From: Clostridium sp. CAG:1000 | Lineage (GTDB): Bacteria > Bacillota_I > Bacilli_A > RF39 > UBA660 | Direction: 5' to 3' | DNA: 64,000 nucleotides | Assembly: GCA_000436975.1 (NCBI GenBank) | Contig: HG000336.1 | Coordinates: 26,519-90,518 of the forward strand | Made by a program: the position numbers and the translations under genes | Part shown: piece by piece, positions 18,302 through 27,135 of the stretch | Layout of the letters: the number at the start of each line of letters is the position of its first letter | Numbering within the stretch: the stretch's first letter is position 1 | The notes under the pieces: model-generated | What the model was told of the DNA's origin: nothing | Databases searched by the model: none | What the model saw: the letters and a program-made list of their open reading frames with translations, nothing else

Positions 18302-19699
18302 ATGATTGAATATCTTTTTTTTATTTGTTATAATTTTAACGTAGGTAGTAATATGAAAAAAATAAAAATGGGTTTAATTTTTTTTATTATGATATTAGAT
18401 TTACTTTTATTAATTAGAGTAACTTATTTTAGGTTTTATGAAGTAAGTAGACCTATTGATATAAAGCCTTATATTAAAGATGATAAAATACATATAACAT
18501 TTTATACTAATGAATATCAATTAAACAACAAAACCTATTGTATTATAAAAAAAGATAATGAAGTACCTTCTATAAATGATAAAAATTGGAAGTTATCTAA
18601 TAATAGTAGTTGTGTATATAAAATTGGAAAAGGAACTTATAAAGCATATGTAAAAACTGCTGATAACAAGATAATTTTTGTTGAGGGCTCTGACATGCTT
18701 GGAAGTGTTACTGATATTAATACTAATAAAGAAAAAATATATTTGGCAATAAATGAACAATACTCACCTACTATTAATATTGATTATATAGGAAATGCTA
18801 AAACAGATATTACGTGGACAAGTGAAAATAATAATATTGCTACTGTTTCTCATGATGGTAAAATTAAAGGTATTTCTGAAGGAGAAACAAAAATTACTGC
18901 TACATCAATGGACAAGAGTATACCTATTAAGGTTATTGTAACAGACTTAATAAATACTAGACCAAATCATTTTAGCAATAAAAAACCTTACCTACCCTGT
19001 GGTATATATTCTAAAGAAGACAATGATTTATTAGATACAATATTAGAAGATAGAATTAACACAGTAGGTTATCAAACAAGAGCTGGAGCTGTAGAAGCAG
19101 CACGATTTATTACATTAGAACTCCCATATAAAATTAGATATTTTTCTGAAAATGGAAGAGGCTCTACTAATGGAGTTCAAGGCGAAGGAAGATATTATAA
19201 TAAAGGATTATACTTACATAGTAGTAGATTTAAAAATATCAAAAAGAAAGCACATGGTCCTAAAACATGGGGATGTAGTTTATATAGTAACCCATCACAT
19301 GGGAAAAGAGCAAATGGACTTGACTGTAGTGGCTTTATATCATGGGTATTATTAAATGGAGGATTCGATGTTGGAGACATAGGAGCTGGTCTTGCACCTC
19401 ATTTAGATTTAACTGATTATGAGCAAAGAATTAAATTTAATTCAAATGTTATAAAATCGGGAAAAGTTAAAGTTGGTGATTTATTAAGTTCCGGAGGAGT
19501 TAATGGTGGACATATAGCAATGATAGTTGGCGAAGATAATAATAAATATTATGTAGCCGAAAGTTTATGGACTCCACCCAATGTAAGTGTTGGAATATAT
19601 GAATATTCTAAGAAAACTATCTTTAATAGATATTACTATGTAATGCTTATGGATAGTTATTATAAAGAAGATGGAAAATTAACAAAATTATGGTATTAG
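18302..19699 (+). CDS. membrane-anchored Big_2 domain + NlpC/P60 (C40) putative peptidoglycan hydrolase
   Basis: Big_2 signature NATVSHDGKIKGISEGETKITATS. C40 catalytic residues DCSGFISWV (Cys) and GGHIAMIVG (His). Probable true start is the MKKIKMG at 18353. Confidence 0.65.
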   Translation: MIEYLFFICYNFNVGSNMKKIKMGLIFFIMILDLLLLIRVTYFRFYEVSRPIDIKPYIKDDKIHITFYTNEYQLNNKTYCIIKKDNEVPSINDKNWKLSNNSSCVYKIGKGTYKAYVKTADNKIIFVEGSDMLGSVTDINTNKEKIYLAINEQYSPTINIDYIGNAKTDITWTSENNNIATVSHDGKIKGISEGETKITATSMDKSIPIKVIVTDLINTRPNHFSNKKPYLPCGIYSKEDNDLLDTILEDRINTVGYQTRAGAVEAARFITLELPYKIRYFSENGRGSTNGVQGEGRYYNKGLYLHSSRFKNIKKKAHGPKTWGCSLYSNPSHGKRANGLDCSGFISWVLLNGGFDVGDIGAGLAPHLDLTDYEQRIKFNSNVIKSGKVKVGDLLSSGGVNGGHIAMIVGEDNNKYYVAESLWTPPNVSVGIYEYSKKTIFNRYYYVMLMDSYYKEDGKLTKLWY

Positions 19700-19711
19700 G
19701 AAGTGTGAATC

Positions 19712-20140
19712 ATGGATTATATTGAAGAATTTATTGAAGATAATATTAAAATAATAGTTATAACTTTTATAGTTTTATTTGTTGTATTAGCATTATATTT
19801 TATATTTAGAGAGAAAAAAACATATGAAATTGTAACTTGTCAAAGTGATGGGGGGTATTTTGAAAGAAGTTTTACAAATAAAAATACAAATGATTCGTGT
19901 GATTTAACAATAAATGCAGGAAGTAAACCTACATCACAATACATGCTTAAAATTAAAAGAGTTAAGATTAGTAGAAATAATAATGTAACAATACTAGTAG
20001 AAAATGAAAAAATATCTGATGAAACAAAAGAAACGTTTACTAACCCCTATTGTAAAATTAAATTTAATTTTCCTTGTAATGATGTATATGTAAAAGATAA
20101 TCACAATAGAATATATTCTAAAATAGATAATGTAAACTAA
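19712..20140 (+). CDS. hypothetical signal-anchored protein (142 aa)
   Basis: N-terminal TM IIVITFIVLFVVLALYFIF. Cys-containing exported domain. Confidence 0.45.
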   Translation: MDYIEEFIEDNIKIIVITFIVLFVVLALYFIFREKKTYEIVTCQSDGGYFERSFTNKNTNDSCDLTINAGSKPTSQYMLKIKRVKISRNNNVTILVENEKISDETKETFTNPYCKIKFNFPCNDVYVKDNHNRIYSKIDNVN

Positions 20141-20157
20141 GATACTTTAAATGCTAA

Positions 20158-21519
20158 GTGTCTTTTTTTTACTTACTTGTTGTGATAAGATTAAATAAAG
20201 ATGGTGATTATATGGCTAAGAAAAGATATAAAAAAAGAAAATTAAGATATAAAATTAAAATACTTTCTAATTTCTTATTATTAATTTTGATATGTACGTC
20301 TGGTTATTATTTATATAACTTAATAATTAATAAGTCCCCTATTCTTTCTATAACAAATAAAAATAATAATCTAATAATTGAGCTTGATAATAATTATGAT
20401 TGTTTATTTACAGATGAATATATACTTCCAGATGTAGATAGTAATAAATGGGTAGCAAGTGATAAAGAATATAAATGTTATACTAAGTTTGATAATAGTA
20501 AATATATATTTTTAAAGAAAAATAATAAAATTGTTTATTCAACTGATGATGTTATATATTTAGAGACATTATCAAATAAAGTATATATGGCTCTTAATGA
20601 TAAAAAAGATTTACCTATAAAAGTAATTGGGAACATAAATAATTTAGATTTTAAATATAGTAATTCTACTGTTATTGATATTAATAAAGGTAAAATTATT
20701 AGTAATAGTATTGGTAATACATCTATTATAACCAAATATAATGGTACTAAAAATATAATAGATGTTATAGTAAGTGATTTAATAGTTAGTATGCCTCATG
20801 AATATGATTTAAAAAAGAAAGGGTTAGAATGTAATAAATACTCAGAAGAAGAAAGTGATATTTTAGACGATATATTAAAGTCAAGGGTTAATGAAGTTGG
20901 TGCCTCTACAAGAGCTTCTGCTGTTAGCGTAGCTAGATTTCTTACATTAGAGTTTCCTTATAGAATAAACTATTTTTATGAAAACGGTAGACAAACTACC
21001 AATAAAGTAGATGGTGAAGGAAGATACTATCATAAGGGACTTTATCTTACAGAAAGCAAATATAGTTCATTAACTGGAAGCACATCTTCGCCTAAAGCAT
21101 GGGGATGTAAACTCTATAGTAAACCTGTTAGTAGGTATGATAATAATGGTCTTGATTGTAGTGGCTTTGTATCTTGGGTATTATTAAATGCAGGATTTGA
21201 TCCTAAAGATGTAGGAACTGGATTTGCTGATTATTTAGATTTAACTGATTATGGAGATGTTAAAAGGATTAATAGTGCTACTATTAATGATATAAAGGTT
21301 GGAGATTTACTTCATAGTTATGCCGCAGGTGGACATATTGGCATCATAGTTGGTATTGATAATGACTACTTTTATGTAGCACAAGCACTATGGTATGATG
21401 AAGTTGGTGTAATAATAACTAAATATAAAAAAGACTTATTATATAAATCATTCCCACATGTAGTACTTATGGATAAATATTATATTAATGATGGTAAACT
21501 TACTAATATGTGGTATTAA
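20158..21519 (+). CDS. paralogous membrane-anchored Big_2 + NlpC/P60 (C40) putative peptidoglycan hydrolase
   Basis: Same architecture as 18302..19699: DCSGFVSWV and GGHIGIIVG. Probable start MAKKRYKK at 20209. Confidence 0.65.
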   Translation: MSFFYLLVVIRLNKDGDYMAKKRYKKRKLRYKIKILSNFLLLILICTSGYYLYNLIINKSPILSITNKNNNLIIELDNNYDCLFTDEYILPDVDSNKWVASDKEYKCYTKFDNSKYIFLKKNNKIVYSTDDVIYLETLSNKVYMALNDKKDLPIKVIGNINNLDFKYSNSTVIDINKGKIISNSIGNTSIITKYNGTKNIIDVIVSDLIVSMPHEYDLKKKGLECNKYSEEESDILDDILKSRVNEVGASTRASAVSVARFLTLEFPYRINYFYENGRQTTNKVDGEGRYYHKGLYLTESKYSSLTGSTSSPKAWGCKLYSKPVSRYDNNGLDCSGFVSWVLLNAGFDPKDVGTGFADYLDLTDYGDVKRINSATINDIKVGDLLHSYAAGGHIGIIVGIDNDYFYVAQALWYDEVGVIITKYKKDLLYKSFPHVVLMDKYYINDGKLTNMWY

Positions 21520-21615: not shown

Positions 21616-22926
21616 TTATTCTTCTATATTTGTATTATTTTCATCTGAATTAGCTTCATCAATATTAATAATATTACTATTAATATTTTCATCTATATTA
21701 TCATTAGTTTTTTTCTTTTTAAATATATTTTTAATGCCAGAAACCCAATTAAATTTTTCTAATATTGAATTAATATATTCATTTCTTTCATTGATTTTTT
21801 TCTTCTCTTCTTTTTCAAGTTGTTTTCTTCTTAAAACTAATTTATATAATATATTATTATTTAATAATACAAAACAACTTACTTCATTTGCAACTAATTC
21901 AGAATATAATATTGGTTGCAAAGTAGTATCATGAGCATCTAATAATTCATCAATACTATCAACTTTAATAACATTATAATCATCTTCATTAATTGTTGCT
22001 ATAGATTTCGATGAAACTATTGCCCTATCATATTCTTTAAGTATTTTACTAATAGTAGAATTATATACATCAATTTTAGATCTACCACTAAATAAAGTAT
22101 ATAGGCTTATATATAATAATGCTAAACTTAATATACCAACTATAAAACCTAATACTAATACAAAAGGTTTTTTAATTTGAGATATATAATTTTTGTCTAA
22201 AGTACCAGCGTTATTAATACTACTAGTATCAATACCTATATCAATAGTTTGCTCTGATAGCGGTATTGCTAAAGATAATTTATTAACTTTTTCAAAATCA
22301 TCTTTTAATATTTTGCTTTTAGCCTTAGTACTAATTTCCATAGTAACAACGAGTTTACTCTTTACTGATAATGCATATGTCTTCTTAAATGAATTTACAT
22401 ACGAATTATATTCATCATAATTAATATTAACTGAGTCATTAATTAAAAAGTTGTTAAATTCTCCTTTATTCTTTTTATCACTTCTAAGCACATTGGTTTT
22501 CTTATATAGTATTTTATTATTATCATTAGGATCCGTTATTAGTAAATCTGCTTTAATATTATATTTATAATCATAATTAAGATTATTATCTGATTTCATA
22601 TTAAATTTATAATTAATATTAATTTTATCAATTAAACTTGCTACATATTGCATATCTTTACCAAGATATTTATCATTATAAAATGAATTATCTTTCAAAT
22701 ATACTTTATAATCAATATCACCAGTTTCATTATAATTTACTACAGATTCCTTTTCACTATACATAGAACCCTTTAGTACAAACAATGTAAGAATAAGCAT
22801 AACCATTGTTGGTATCATCATACATATAAACCATTTTCTAATTGTAAATGGTTTCACTTCTTCAATACTATCATTTTCTGCATTATTTTCATTTTGAATA
22901 TTATTCATTTTATCACACCTTTTCAT
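21616..22926 (-). CDS. bitopic membrane protein, last gene of the SipW-type locus (possible TapA/DUF5305-like accessory protein)
   Basis: Two TM helices (~residues 35-55 and ~265-290). N/K-rich. The start overlaps the upstream gene by 14 nt. Confidence 0.45.
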   Translation of the reverse strand: MKRCDKMNNIQNENNAENDSIEEVKPFTIRKWFICMMIPTMVMLILTLFVLKGSMYSEKESVVNYNETGDIDYKVYLKDNSFYNDKYLGKDMQYVASLIDKININYKFNMKSDNNLNYDYKYNIKADLLITDPNDNNKILYKKTNVLRSDKKNKGEFNNFLINDSVNINYDEYNSYVNSFKKTYALSVKSKLVVTMEISTKAKSKILKDDFEKVNKLSLAIPLSEQTIDIGIDTSSINNAGTLDKNYISQIKKPFVLVLGFIVGILSLALLYISLYTLFSGRSKIDVYNSTISKILKEYDRAIVSSKSIATINEDDYNVIKVDSIDELLDAHDTTLQPILYSELVANEVSCFVLLNNNILYKLVLRRKQLEKEEKKKINERNEYINSILEKFNWVSGIKNIFKKKKTNDNIDENINSNIINIDEANSDENNTNIEE

Positions 22927-24106
22927 TTAACCATACTGTTGGAACTCCAAGATATGGTATTTTTAAAGTGGCTTTCCCAATAACTAAAGCCTCATTAATA
23001 GTCCAACTATCTTCTTCACTATTGTTATCACCTTTAGTATTAAAATATATAACCCCATTATATTCTTTAACCCTAACTATGCGGTGAACTATAACCATAT
23101 CATTATGTTTATATACAAGTACTTCTCCTTCTTTAAGTTTTCTAATTTCCTTTTCATTTAGTTTTTCAACAACAACTACATCACCTTTATTAATTCTTGG
23201 TTCCATAGATTCAGAACCAATTGCAAGAACATAAAATTTAAATATGCCACTAGTCAAAGATATCATTAGGAATATTATTATAACTAGTCCAATAGATAAT
23301 ATTTTTTCAGCTTTATTATTATTTCTTATATTTTCGTTAGTTTTTTTCTTTTTAAATTCTGTATAAAGCTTATACATAATAAGAGCTGGAAATAATAAAT
23401 TAATCACTGTTTGCATATATATATCAATATCAGGCACAATTGGCAATAAAAATGTAGGAATTTCCATAAATAATCTATATACTAATGGTGGCTTATATCC
23501 AAATTTAAGCGACATGTATGTTAAAAGTATATTCTTAGATAATAATGGAATCGTAGTAGCATATAACATTTTAATTATTCCGGAAGTTGTATGTAAATCA
23601 TATAAATAACTTACAAGTATACTATCTATTGATACAAATAATAAGCAAGTTAATATTATCAAAAATTTATTTTCTTTTCCTTTTTGAATTAATTCATATC
23701 TTAAAAATTCACTAGCAAATATAATTATCAATACAGGCGTAACATTTCTAATAATACCAATTAATTTCAAATTGTAACCACTTCTTAAAAAGCCAAGCCA
23801 TATACCACTAATATAAATTATTAAATAATATAGTATACAATATATTATTAAAGTCATTAACACATCTTTAGTAAATAATTGTCTACTTTTTTCATAGCCT
23901 AATAATCCAATTGATATAAGTAAGGCAGTAATAAGAAGTATAGATAGACCTAAATAGCCTATTTTATTTGTTACAAAAATATCTAAAAGAATAATCACTA
24001 AAGTAACTATTTCTATAATAGCAACTTTTTTTTCGCTAGATTTCATTACACCACCTCTTTTAAATATTTTTCTAATAAATATAATGATTAGGTATGTCTC
24101 ACTCAT
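22913..24106 (-). CDS. SipW-type (archaeal/ER-type) signal peptidase I fused to an N-terminal ~250 aa polytopic membrane domain
   Basis: C-terminal FYVLAIGSESMEPRINKGDVVVV...VHRIV matches the SipW/Sec11 fold. Upstream of it are ~7 hydrophobic helices. Confidence 0.65.
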   Translation of the reverse strand: MSETYLIIIFIRKIFKRGGVMKSSEKKVAIIEIVTLVIILLDIFVTNKIGYLGLSILLITALLISIGLLGYEKSRQLFTKDVLMTLIIYCILYYLIIYISGIWLGFLRSGYNLKLIGIIRNVTPVLIIIFASEFLRYELIQKGKENKFLIILTCLLFVSIDSILVSYLYDLHTTSGIIKMLYATTIPLLSKNILLTYMSLKFGYKPPLVYRLFMEIPTFLLPIVPDIDIYMQTVINLLFPALIMYKLYTEFKKKKTNENIRNNNKAEKILSIGLVIIIFLMISLTSGIFKFYVLAIGSESMEPRINKGDVVVVEKLNEKEIRKLKEGEVLVYKHNDMVIVHRIVRVKEYNGVIYFNTKGDNNSEEDSWTINEALVIGKATLKIPYLGVPTVWLNEKV

Positions 24107-24154
24107 TTCGCGAAATAAGGCATACCTAAATCATTTATTTTTAAATTACTTTAA

Positions 24155-24796
24155 TTAGTTAGCTTGACTAAATGTTAAAGTAGTTTCTGGAATACTAATA
24201 TTTACTTTACCAGCTGGAAGATCAGATGCATTATTGAAATCTTCATATTCAATAGTATATAAATAATCTTGAGTACCAGTTTTAGCGGTAATAGTATCAG
24301 TATTAAGTGTCACTGGGCTACCATCTGCTTTAGTAAAGCTAAATTTTAAATGTTTTTTAACATTAGCAGCATCAGTTTCAGCTTTTTCACCAGTTCCAGT
24401 AATTGTTAATGAATCTAATGTTGGAATACTACTTGCAGTTAATTTTGCTAAATAGTCTCCCGTATTAGATACAGTAATTTTATATTGTAATTTTTGTCCT
24501 GGAGCAGTAAAGTTTGCAGTAACTACACCAATTTTAGTATTAGTTGTGTTTTCACCAGTAGTTCCGTTTCCAATACTAGGAGTAGTTGCTTCTAAACCAG
24601 CACTACTAGCTTCAGTTTTTTCAACGCCTGTAAATAATACGCTCCATGTTTTACCACCAGTGTTAACACTAGCAGTACCATTAATTTGTAATGTTGTACT
24701 GAATGCGGCAAAACCTACACCAATTGCTACTACAGAAATTACTAAAGCAGCAATTACTAAAGTTTTCATTTCTCTTTCTCTATTCATGTTTACCAT
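24155..24796 (-). CDS. secreted protein with SipW-cognate-class signal peptide (TasA/camelysin-like candidate fibre subunit), paralog C
   Basis: N-terminus KTLVIAALVISVVAIGVGFAAFSTTLQINGTASV. Shares architecture with the other two paralogs. Confidence 0.5.
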   Translation of the reverse strand: MVNMNREREMKTLVIAALVISVVAIGVGFAAFSTTLQINGTASVNTGGKTWSVLFTGVEKTEASSAGLEATTPSIGNGTTGENTTNTKIGVVTANFTAPGQKLQYKITVSNTGDYLAKLTASSIPTLDSLTITGTGEKAETDAANVKKHLKFSFTKADGSPVTLNTDTITAKTGTQDYLYTIEYEDFNNASDLPAGKVNISIPETTLTFSQAN

Positions 24797-24810: not shown

Positions 24811-25395
24811 TTAATTTTGTCCATAGTATAATGTTATTGAAAGATTATCTACATCAACGGAATTAACCGGCCATGTATCACCTTCATACCACATACTAAT
24901 TTTTAGGGATTGAAGCGAGTTACTCTTCAAAACATCTCCAACTTTAATATCAGTTCCATCCTTATAAGCCAGTTTATACTTGAAATGACTACAGACAAGA
25001 TTTGCATCTTTTTGTGCCTCCTCGTCTTTTCCTGTACAAATTGGTTCAGTTTGAACTAGTGAAGTGACTACGGCATCAATACCGCTATTATTAACGACAT
25101 CTAATGTATATGATGCCGTATCATCCATACTATTAAATTCAACGCGAAATGAACCAATAATAGTTGATTTATCATCAATAGTTGGATCAATAAGTCCCTT
25201 AGCCGTTCCTTCATATGTAAAGTTAGATAAGTTAGCAAAATGTACATCCCATTTATGAGAAGTAATTGTTGCATAACCTTTGGTTTTCAGGGCTTTAAAT
25301 GACGTAGATAATGCCATTAAAGAAACACTAAGACCAAATACTGCAATAAGTAAGGCTACCACTGCAGCAACTAAATCCAAATTTTTCTTCTTCAT
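24811..25395 (-). CDS. secreted protein with SipW-cognate-class signal peptide, paralog B
   Basis: N-terminus LVAAVVALLIAVFGLSVSLMALSTSFKALKTKG. Conserved W.V.F.N, Cys pair and L.I.L.Y.Q blocks. Confidence 0.5.
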   Translation of the reverse strand: MKKKNLDLVAAVVALLIAVFGLSVSLMALSTSFKALKTKGYATITSHKWDVHFANLSNFTYEGTAKGLIDPTIDDKSTIIGSFRVEFNSMDDTASYTLDVVNNSGIDAVVTSLVQTEPICTGKDEEAQKDANLVCSHFKYKLAYKDGTDIKVGDVLKSNSLQSLKISMWYEGDTWPVNSVDVDNLSITLYYGQN

Positions 25396-25625: not shown

Positions 25626-26395
25626 CTAACCAATTCGGAAAGCTGGAGAAACGCTGTATGTACCACGAGCATAAATATTGCCCCAACCACCATTAGTGCT
25701 GACAGCGTAGAAAATACTATAATAGTAAGAATTGGCCGAGCGGAGCCACCAAAAATTAGCAGTTCCTGCACTATTCTTTTTTATTGCAGCTTCATAACTA
25801 CTTGTAGTCACACCTTTACTATTATAATAGTCTAATTGTCTTGTAAGATCTTTTGCTAAATCATACTGATAAGACCAGTCTGAATATATTTCTTTTGGTG
25901 CTAATAAATATAGTTTATCTGATGATGTAAAGTTATTTGTATCTTCTTTGCCATGGCCTGACACTGTTTCAGTAGTGATGATTACGCTCTTTAATTCCTG
26001 TGGTAATGAATTATAAATATCATTATCTATAAATGTTTTCATTTGACTTTTTGGCCATCCATCTTTATTCCAACCCGAATTATATGTTGTTCCTTTATAT
26101 TCTCCGCTTGGATTCATATTATGTGTAGTTATTATATCAGTAAACTCTACTACAAATCCACATGCGCTTTGTGAAAATCCTTCTTGATTACATTCGTCTG
26201 GTGTACTCATATTTGATATTCTTACTTTATGTTTTCCATATGTACCTAAGTCTACTTCTTTTTCATCTCCAACATTGTATTTACTTGTTTGACCTGTTCT
26301 TACGGCATTTGCTATTGTATTCCATTTCTGTTTTTCCTGCTTTGACAGCTTTAGCTATTGTATCCCATGAATCTTCTGCAAAGGAAACAGTATTT
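25626..26395 (-). pseudogene. DUF6273-like family gene (WWLRSA...SPAFRIG), frameshifted in its N-terminal region
   Basis: The N-terminal domain (DSWDTIAKAVKAGKTE / WNTIANAVRTGQTSKYNVGDEKEV) is in two frames across a tandem ~48 bp duplication. There is no start codon in the upstream frame. The track ORF is 25626..26210. Confidence 0.5.
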
Positions 26396-26400
26396 ATTGG

Positions 26401-27135
26401 TTAATCTGATACAACAGGTGTATTTGAACCAATAGTAGGTGTTTTAACCTGTGAATAAGTAAGACTAATCCCTAAACCAGATATTGATACATCATCTTGT
26501 GGTTCTTCTATAGTTGCTCCATCCACTGGACTTTTATATTTTAATGTAAGGATCATATCCTTAACATCTCCCGCATTTAATACATCATTCACTTCTGGAT
26601 AGCTAGAAAAATTTTGTGGAGAACCATTATCATCATAATGTTCTTCTTCGTTTGCATATTTTAAAGTATATTCTAAATTAGCACATACATTGTTAGCATC
26701 TATAGTAGCCTGTTCACCATTTCCATACCCTTCACAACTAATAGTATCTTTTACAATTTCAGATAATTTAGCATTTATAGTACCATTATTAGCTATTTGA
26801 AATGTATATGATATAGAATCTCCTGGTTCTAAAAAATTAACATTATATGACTTTAATTCAGTCTTATCTTCACTTATTACAGGATCCGTTATTTTAACCG
26901 CACTTCCAGTTAAAGAAGCTTCACTTAAATTTTGAAATTCTATTTTAAAAGACATTCCATCAACATTAGCAACTCCATTTATTTTAAGCGTAGTTGATAA
27001 GGCAGAATATCCTATACTAAGAGCTACACAAGATACTATCAATAATGTAATTAAAGAAATTTTACTATTGTCTTTATTCTTAATTCTAACTTTCATAATG
27101 GCTCCTATTCTTATATAAATATAACATAAAAACAA
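26401..27135 (-). CDS. secreted protein with SipW-cognate-class signal peptide, paralog A (first gene of the locus)
   Basis: Likely start MKVRIKNKD at 27093. N-terminus LITLLIVSCVALSIGYSALSTTLKINGVANV. Confidence 0.5.
   Translation of the reverse strand: MFLCYIYIRIGAIMKVRIKNKDNSKISLITLLIVSCVALSIGYSALSTTLKINGVANVDGMSFKIEFQNLSEASLTGSAVKITDPVISEDKTELKSYNVNFLEPGDSISYTFQIANNGTINAKLSEIVKDTISCEGYGNGEQATIDANNVCANLEYTLKYANEEEHYDDNGSPQNFSSYPEVNDVLNAGDVKDMILTLKYKSPVDGATIEEPQDDVSISGLGISLTYSQVKTPTIGSNTPVVSD

Follow-up and report, generated by a model that had tools for sequence, protein, structure and literature searches.

A polytopic signal peptidase I with an eight-helix N-terminal membrane module, probably dedicated to an AbpX-type surface-fibre operon of Clostridium sp. 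CAG:1000

A stretch of 64,000 nucleotides from Clostridium sp. CAG:1000 (contig HG000336.1 of assembly GCA_000436975.1, positions 26,519 to 90,518; hereafter the window, with a G+C content of about 25%) carries on its reverse strand a gene for a polytopic signal peptidase I (SPase I) of 377 amino acids (22913..24046). The C-terminal part of the protein is a catalytic domain of the endoplasmic reticulum (ER)/archaeal type, and its N-terminal part is an eight-helix membrane domain of an orphan family. We propose that the protein serves an AbpX-type (TasA-superfamily) surface-fibre operon as its dedicated signal peptidase, with the eight-helix module acting as a platform, and we give this joint reading a probability of about 0.6. 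The dedication of the peptidase to fibre subunits is very probable; for the platform role of the module we see about even odds.

The six-frame list of open reading frames (ORFs) contains the 397-residue frame described in the initial annotation (22913..24106, reverse strand), including the sequences quoted from it. The true start of the gene is almost certainly the ATG at 24046, which gives the 377-residue protein and the residue numbering used here, because a ribosome-binding site (AGAGGTGGTG) precedes this ATG at the right spacing, gene callers begin at the equivalent codon in three near-identical public contigs (L001-L003 in our numbering of loci; 377 residues in each), and database homologues are about 375-390 residues long, the closest being 377. 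Moreover, the upstream ATG at 24106, which opens the 397-residue frame, falls inside a hairpin in the RNA (24076..24140, reverse strand; minimum free energy -22.6 kcal/mol, z-score -3.5, equalled by 0 of 200 shuffled sequences). This hairpin lies between the peptidase gene and a gene for a 213-residue fibre subunit upstream of it. It may be an attenuator or a terminator and could set the ratio of subunit to peptidase.

Residues from about 266 to 377 (22913..23251, including the stop codon) are an ER/archaeal-type Ser-His-Asp signal peptidase I domain (MEROPS S26B), whose sequence predicts cleavage of signal peptides. The model TIGR02228 ('signal peptidase I, archaeal/ER type') gave 91.3 bits, above its cut-off of 51.85, for residues 271-396 of the 397-residue frame, and the domain also matched Pfam S24/S26. 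Alignment with human SEC11C and SEC11A (E about 1e-12, 27-28% identity) brought SESMEP, VHRI and TKGDNNSEED into register. The Ser nucleophile of the SxSMxP motif, a His instead of Lys as general base and the GDN..D acidic box are all present, and Ser280 (codon 23207-23209), His321 (codon 23084-23086), Asp340 and Asp346 were 100% conserved in 170 homologues, the set to which all conservation values below refer. When the full-length AlphaFold2 model was searched with Foldseek, the catalytic subunits of the human signal peptidase complex (SPC; 7p2q and 7p2p) were the top matches. The domain had initially been annotated as SipW-type; it is indeed an ER/SipW-like Ser-His peptidase, but it does not qualify as a strict SipW orthologue, because the NCBIfam SipW equivalog NF046067 scored 67.8 bits, under its cut-off of 190. 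Between the two parts of the protein, residues 239-265 (23252..23332) comprise a cytoplasmic linker rich in Lys and the anchor helix that belongs to the peptidase itself. The anchor helix (residues 244-265 in the model) was predicted from hydropathy and charge distribution to run N-in/C-out, with a Lys-rich segment before it and the beta-rich domain after it, which would place the catalytic domain outside the membrane.

The N-terminal domain (residues 1-238; 23333..24046) was modelled with confidence when submitted to AlphaFold2 alone (predicted local distance difference test score 90.1, predicted template-modelling score (pTM) 0.88). The model has eight membrane helices, TM1 to TM8 (residues 3-26, 31-49, 59-84, 95-122, 127-148, 154-182, 185-200 and 209-237), and two short extracellular strands (86-88 and 203-205). 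With the anchor helix, the whole protein thus has nine predicted membrane helices, rather than the anchor and about seven extra ones that had been estimated at first. An N-in topology with a cytoplasmic Lys-rich linker (238-243) is predicted from the charge distribution and from the requirement that the catalytic domain be outside. The claim that this large polytopic domain carries no family signature was borne out: its approximately 240 residues matched no Pfam or NCBIfam model, even when 18 members were scanned against Pfam at E<=10, and a family profile searched against PDB sequences returned chance hydrophobic matches only (e.g. MdfA, PGG). An internal 4+4 helix duplication of the transporter type was rejected after alignment of the two halves with hhalign (probability 0.9%).

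Glu113 and Arg116, the two best-conserved residues of this domain (99% each), lie in the cytoplasmic half of TM4, within the SEFLRYE segment (codons of its core E113-F-L-R116 at 23699..23710), and Asn172 on TM6 is 91% conserved. Gly81 and Gly85 at the outer end of TM3 and Pro202 and Pro205 of the extracellular strand are each 96-98% conserved, and Tyr190 (TM7) reaches 86% and Tyr210 and Pro220 (TM8) 90-94%. By segment, the strand regions 85-94 and 201-208 were the best conserved (mean top-residue frequency 0.51 and 0.61), followed by TM7 and TM4; the catalytic domain, with a mean of 0.54, is comparable to these. The conserved extracellular segments are on the membrane face at which cleavage takes place. 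The domain has no conserved His, Cys or Ser, and no His reached 50% anywhere in residues 1-244.

The fusion of the two parts is real and extends far beyond what chance or artefact could produce. A search with the N-terminal domain alone returned 35 proteins, nearly all of 375-389 residues and bearing S24/S26 domains, down to 27% identity. With the whole protein, phmmer found 509 cluster representatives (50% identity clusters) at E<1e-30; the 150 of them that were listed were mostly full-length proteins of about 360-400 residues, with a few shorter fragments and one protein of 812 residues. A profile of the N-terminal domain only gave the same picture, as nearly all of its top 120 matches were fused proteins of about 374-389 residues and the few shorter ones were on short contigs. 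No intact stand-alone gene for the N-terminal domain was found among the listed matches, and the fusion of the peptidase to this domain appears to be obligate. One seemingly stand-alone copy (P0035, contig L086) is a 205-residue ORF overlapping a 178-residue peptidase ORF; because its tail is out of frame and the two ORFs overlap, this split looks like a frameshift in that contig. L086 is also what could be cited for the idea that the long ORF of the window is itself an assembly error or frameshift joining a membrane-protein gene to a short SipW gene. We consider this possibility practically negligible, since the L086 frameshift appears to belong to that contig and since hundreds of assemblies and isolates, independent of one another and with identities down to about 25%, have a single ORF of about 375-390 residues. 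As to the checks suggested in the initial annotation, searching the two domains separately aligned the C-terminal part with SEC11C/A while the N-terminal part found no family, and the homologues conserve the architecture at full length.

The peptidase family is large across Bacillota. A scan of species-representative genomes with an alignment of ten closer sequences found 506 relatives, and the best 80 of these came from uncultured Bacilli, Erysipelotrichaceae, bins labelled 'Tenericutes', many Clostridia and one Chloroflexia bin, with the isolates Peptostreptococcus canis, Oribacterium sp. F0262, Sporanaerobium hydrogeniformans, Oceanirhabdus seepicola and Bovifimicola ammoniilytica among them. 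Some operon-bearing contigs, including L007, L010 and L018, are labelled Bacteroides, Muribaculaceae, Saccharibacteria or Nomurabacteria; these are probably mis-binned rather than true occurrences in those phyla. The search for homologues with an N-terminal extension therefore showed that the architecture is not rare, and neither has it gone unnoticed, since a preprint of 2026 remarks on it (see below).

The genomic context links this peptidase to fibre subunits. ORFs were called in 86 loci and searched with locally built hidden Markov models (HMMs), which yielded 81 full-length fused genes after removal of redundancy. In 76 of these 81 loci one or more AbpX-like ORFs were present within 6 kb (mean 2.2 copies), and between one and seven small secreted proteins are encoded near the peptidase. 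Of the 78 loci with room for it, 73 had a DUF5305-like gene downstream of the peptidase gene, on its strand and no more than 3 kb away; in 60 it was directly adjacent. In the window, this gene encodes a DUF5305 protein of 430 residues with two transmembrane helices (21616..22908, reverse strand, from ATG 22908, the mechanical ORF reaching 22926; PF17231, E 3e-16; start supported by the L001 gene call), a putative accessory subunit of the peptidase. Its start codon lies 4 nucleotides past the peptidase stop codon, and the two genes are probably translationally coupled. Of the related loci L014 (4544-5107), L083 (4953-5501), L016 and L021, some have an extra short SipW-like gene of 182-187 residues; others have the polytopic gene twice, with a separate DUF5305-like gene after each copy.

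Upstream of the peptidase gene and on the same strand are two genes of one HMM family, for AbpX/TasA-superfamily subunits of 213 residues (24155..24796), probably the major subunit and followed by the hairpin described above, and of 194 residues (24811..25395), probably a minor one. The small-protein family (alignment A4) has a basic N-terminus, a hydrophobic segment of about 20 residues ending in [VI]-G-[YF]-A, and then A-[FW]-[ST]-x-x-L-x-I-x-G; further motifs are W-x-V-x-F, PGD...Y...V.N.G..DA.L and a terminal Y-x-Q. Although a PDB search with the single sequence of the 213-residue neighbour gave nothing meaningful, the A4 profile reached AbpX (9sj2_C, E 2.6e-14; 9rhp_A, E 1.5e-11) and, weakly, TasA (E 0.03-0.05). 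Twelve of 34 members of the family weakly matched Pfam Peptidase_M73 (camelysin family). The residues that follow G-[YF]-A|A line up exactly with the mature N-terminus of AbpX (W2-S-E-T-L), W2 falling at the aromatic position. Therefore, the predicted cut in the 213-residue protein is VGFA|AFSTTLQ (in full, VGFA|AFSTTLQING), and the new N-terminus would be the donor strand. The 194-residue subunit gene is preceded by a terminator-like hairpin and a promoter-like site. The strong hairpin that follows the 213-residue gene suggests that the subunits are highly expressed and that read-through reaches the genes for the peptidase and DUF5305.

An enzyme of this class could also be the general housekeeping signal peptidase of the organism, not dedicated to the fibre, as no other signal peptidase was seen in the 64 kb of the window; from the G+C content of the window and from an identical protein recorded under Clostridium sp. 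in a metagenome-assembled genome, this organism appears to be a low-GC bacterium of the gut. However, the tight linkage to AbpX-like subunits and DUF5305 is near-universal, the ER-type SipW-like enzymes that have been characterised are accessory and substrate-dedicated (PMC7395162; PMC11821415), and some loci have two copies or an additional short SipW-like gene (L016, L021, L014, L083). We consider a housekeeping role very unlikely.

On the proposed reading, the small subunits encoded upstream would be exported by Sec and remain tethered by their long signal anchor, which ends in [VI]-G-[YF]-A. The extracellular Ser280-His321-Asp domain would then cut between that Ala and A-[FW]-[ST]-x-x-L-x-I. 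As the new N-terminus would itself be the donor strand, cleavage would both release the subunit and arm it for polymerisation by donor-strand exchange. Together with both helices of DUF5305, the eight-helix module and the anchor helix would form one membrane holoenzyme, a functional analogue of the eukaryotic SPC, in which the module would be a non-catalytic platform that docks the signal anchor and presents the cut site to Ser280 and His321. Its conserved extracellular strands would be near the cleavage site, and the buried Glu113/Arg116/Asn172 cluster near the basic n-region of the substrate. The analysis shows what the domains are, that the fusion and the gene order are conserved, that the neighbouring proteins are homologous to AbpX and where the cleavage motif lies; we infer that the complex forms, that the module is a platform and that cleavage is coupled to polymerisation. 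According to the initial suggestion, such a fusion could link cleavage to the recognition of substrates, to polymerisation or to a second processing step, which is plausible.

Several observations weigh against this proposal. The short canonical SipW enzymes that act on TasA and BsaA have no such module (PMC7395162), and it is therefore not required for cleavage as such. The near-invariant polar residues Glu113, Arg116 and Asn172 are buried in the cytoplasmic half of the membrane and are not obviously needed by a passive scaffold; their conservation could point to catalysis or to the binding of ions or lipids. The full-length model has a pTM of 0.62, against 0.88 for the N-terminal domain alone, which makes the orientation of the two domains uncertain. 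An acidic residue at mature position 4, which has been tied to the calcium-dependent assembly of AbpX by donor-strand complementation (bioRxiv 10.64898/2026.01.04.697558), occurs in 25 of 107 AbpX-like subunits, and all three proteins of the window have Thr or Ser instead; the fibres of these gut bacteria may assemble without that calcium site. Finally, the activity of the peptidase, its substrate specificity and the contacts among module, DUF5305 and signal anchor are predictions from sequence and from modelled structures.

One alternative is that the eight helices themselves form a second enzyme, acting within the membrane, such as a glutamic protease far diverged from Rce1 and the CPBP family, which would clear the cut signal anchors or process the subunits a second time. 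The sole non-trivial PDB fold match of the N-terminal domain was the CAAX protease Rce1 (4cad; template-modelling (TM) score 0.46-0.50, Foldseek probability 0.82-0.96), and APH-1, a non-catalytic relative of Rce1, was also among the fold matches (TM score 0.35). Rce1/CPBP (Abi) proteins and APH-1 resemble the module, as modelled, in having an eight-helix bundle of similar size with a conserved Glu/Arg pair on TM4. The EExxxR motif of the Rce1 structure is at a position similar to that of Glu113 and Arg116, in the cytoplasmic half of TM4, and these two residues and Asn172 are, as noted, 91-99% conserved. On the other hand, the match to 4cad has E-values of 0.09-0.7 and a root-mean-square deviation of 6.5 A. 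CPBP motif 1 (EExxxR) is replaced by S-E113-x-x-R116, with a single Glu and a spacing shorter by one residue, and the motifs FxxxH and HxxxN/D, which hold the catalytic His, are absent from the N-terminal domain in the 170 homologues. PF02517 was matched by 0 of 18 members at E<=10, and hhalign against an Rce1 alignment gave a probability of 0.1, although this negative is weak because the alignment is shallow (vertebrate sequences and one from yeast). That alignment was gathered with a human RCE1 sequence validated by its match to PF02517, which found vertebrate sequences only among the matches listed; the yeast sequence was added to these. Neither did a phmmer search of the PDB with RCE1 reach 4cad, and a motif scan of the window and the related loci for CPBP genes as a local reference found none. 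The resemblance to Rce1 is therefore a weak lead from modelled fold, with motifs and profiles arguing against it, and the hint of an intramembrane protease that had been seen in SEFLRYE gains the conservation of Glu113/Arg116 and this fold match but fails at the level of motifs. A second enzyme of this kind appears improbable. Foldseek also gave its top E-values to Na+/Ca2+ exchangers, with TM scores of 0.15-0.19 and probabilities of at most 0.14; these matches were treated as noise.

Alternatively, the module might be the membrane base or assembly site of the fibre, retaining the growing filament at the cell surface or catalysing donor-strand insertion in the manner of pilus-specific assembly factors. 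The best-conserved segments of the N-terminal domain are beta-strands on the extracellular side, with which a donor strand could pair. Among the fold matches was SipA (PDB 4n31), a signal-peptidase homologue without which S. pyogenes does not polymerise its pili. The operon of the window has no obvious anchor (LPXTG, SLH or sortase), such as bacterial abpX loci often carry (bioRxiv 10.64898/2026.01.04.697558). This explanation is nevertheless unlikely, as the extracellular part of the module consists of two short loops only, and AbpX and cannula subunits are described as polymerising in vitro without a helper protein (PMC12518558; bioRxiv 10.64898/2026.01.04.697558).

A broader formulation is that the module is a new functional membrane domain family and not a passive anchor, either as a degenerate scaffold of the Rce1/APH-1 kind that would hold the signal anchor and pass the freshly cut donor strand on to the fibre, or as a new intramembrane hydrolase that uses Glu113, Arg116 and Asn172 on signal anchors. 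We regard this as doubtful; if true in either form, it would mean that signal-peptide cleavage and a second membrane step are hard-wired in one polypeptide across hundreds of Bacillota species.

The proposed fibre operon also seems to include a tip protein. In L002 and L003, the two small subunit genes are preceded by a gene for a protein of 725-735 residues, with an AbpX-like N-terminal domain and two tandem DUF6273 domains, presumably a tip adhesin. By comparison of window positions 25626..27135 (reverse strand) with L002:6243-8420, this gene is broken in the window into an ORF of 244 residues for the AbpX-like N-terminal module (26401..27135, reverse strand; a member of the HMM family) and an ORF of 194 residues for a DUF6273 fragment from the C-terminal part (25626..26210, reverse strand; PF19789, E 6e-17; assigned by BLAST against L002), with one repeat missing. 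The break could reflect strain variation by recombination between repeats, a pseudogene or an assembly error.

A gene of the Na+/Ca2+ exchanger family (PF01699; 27159..28106) adjoins the fibre operon on its upstream side and has the same orientation, in the window as in L001-L003 and not in the three more distant loci L004-L006; given the reported calcium dependence of AbpX assembly, this adjacency may or may not be meaningful. A divergent cluster on the forward strand (18302..21519), kept beside the operon in L001-L003, encodes two large secreted NlpC/P60-like proteins, one with Big_2, around a small PrcB_C protein. A type II-A CRISPR-Cas locus (Cas9, Cas1, Cas2 and Csn2; L001:18714-21134) lies about 7 kb from the fibre operon in L001 and is replaced by other genes in L002 and L003, and that flank is therefore variable.

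Fibres of the TasA/AbpX type are a cross-domain way to build a biofilm matrix, and their processing and assembly at the membrane are poorly understood. Gut-associated low-GC Bacillota carry a compact system of subunits, polytopic peptidase and DUF5305. The sources that name these peptidases call them only 'signal peptidase I' or 'signal peptidase', and with no Pfam or NCBIfam model for the N-terminal domain their fibre connection is therefore invisible in current annotation. The module now has a boundary, near-invariant residues (Glu113, Arg116, Asn172, Gly81/Gly85 and Pro202/Pro205), a distribution and a predicted substrate motif, which are handles for mutagenesis and for the curation of a domain family.

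A functional comparison can be made with SipW. B. subtilis SipW has about 190 residues and one or two transmembrane segments; it lacks a polytopic domain, and its operon is not known to encode a DUF5305 partner. The window protein, with 377 residues and nine predicted membrane helices, does not have this canonical architecture, as had been noted from the start. The SipW enzymes of B. subtilis and C. perfringens (BsaA operon) share with it the ER-type Ser-His catalytic class; they too are dedicated enzymes in operons of TasA-superfamily matrix fibre subunits and cut just before an A-[FW] N-terminus. C. perfringens SipW was considered as a characterised member of the polytopic class and rejected, as it is a short canonical SipW (PMC7395162); the sipW-bsaA transcript is only 1.4 kb long (PMC7395162).

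A polytopic class has recently been noticed at AbpX loci. One sentence of a preprint of January 2026 states that the AbpX-associated SPase I has ten transmembrane helices (bioRxiv 10.64898/2026.01.04.697558), and our literature search found no other description of this architecture. The window peptidase belongs to this class, and ours is not its first discovery. Common to both are the ER/archaeal-type SPase I (TIGR02228) with a large polytopic part and the adjoining genes for AbpX-like major and minor subunits, a tip protein and DUF5305; the class is reported from Bacillota as well as archaea. In the same preprint, DUF5305 is regarded as a putative accessory subunit of SPase I that is fused to the enzyme in some cases, an arrangement likened there to the eukaryotic complex (bioRxiv 10.64898/2026.01.04.697558). 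The differences are the number of helices, ten there and nine modelled here, a gap that we take as prediction tolerance, and the absence of the acidic mature position 4 from most subunits here. The preprint itself offers no analysis of the membrane domain and no proposed function for it; that the N-terminal domain is homologous to that of its examples (A0A1M6GRN4 and WP_338249487.1) we infer.

The Tat-fimbriae of haloarchaea provide a parallel with experimental support. TafD, an S26 peptidase encoded in the locus, is genetically required for processing of the fibre subunit TafA (PMC11821415), and the DUF5305 protein TafG has been proposed to assist it (PMC11821415; PMC12337348). The dedicated S26 peptidase with a DUF5305 partner, sometimes fused, is thus common to both systems. 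TafD, however, has four transmembrane helices and an extra C-terminal extracellular domain without an N-terminal eight-helix module, and its substrates travel by the Tat pathway. The eukaryotic SPC (SEC11A/C with SPCS1-3; 7p2p, 7p2q) contains the closest solved relative of the catalytic domain. There, the catalytic subunit is placed inside a multi-helix membrane assembly, which is the functional analogy that we propose for the putative bacterial complex. The accessory helices of the SPC come from separate small subunits, whereas those of the window peptidase are fused to the enzyme and unrelated to them in sequence.

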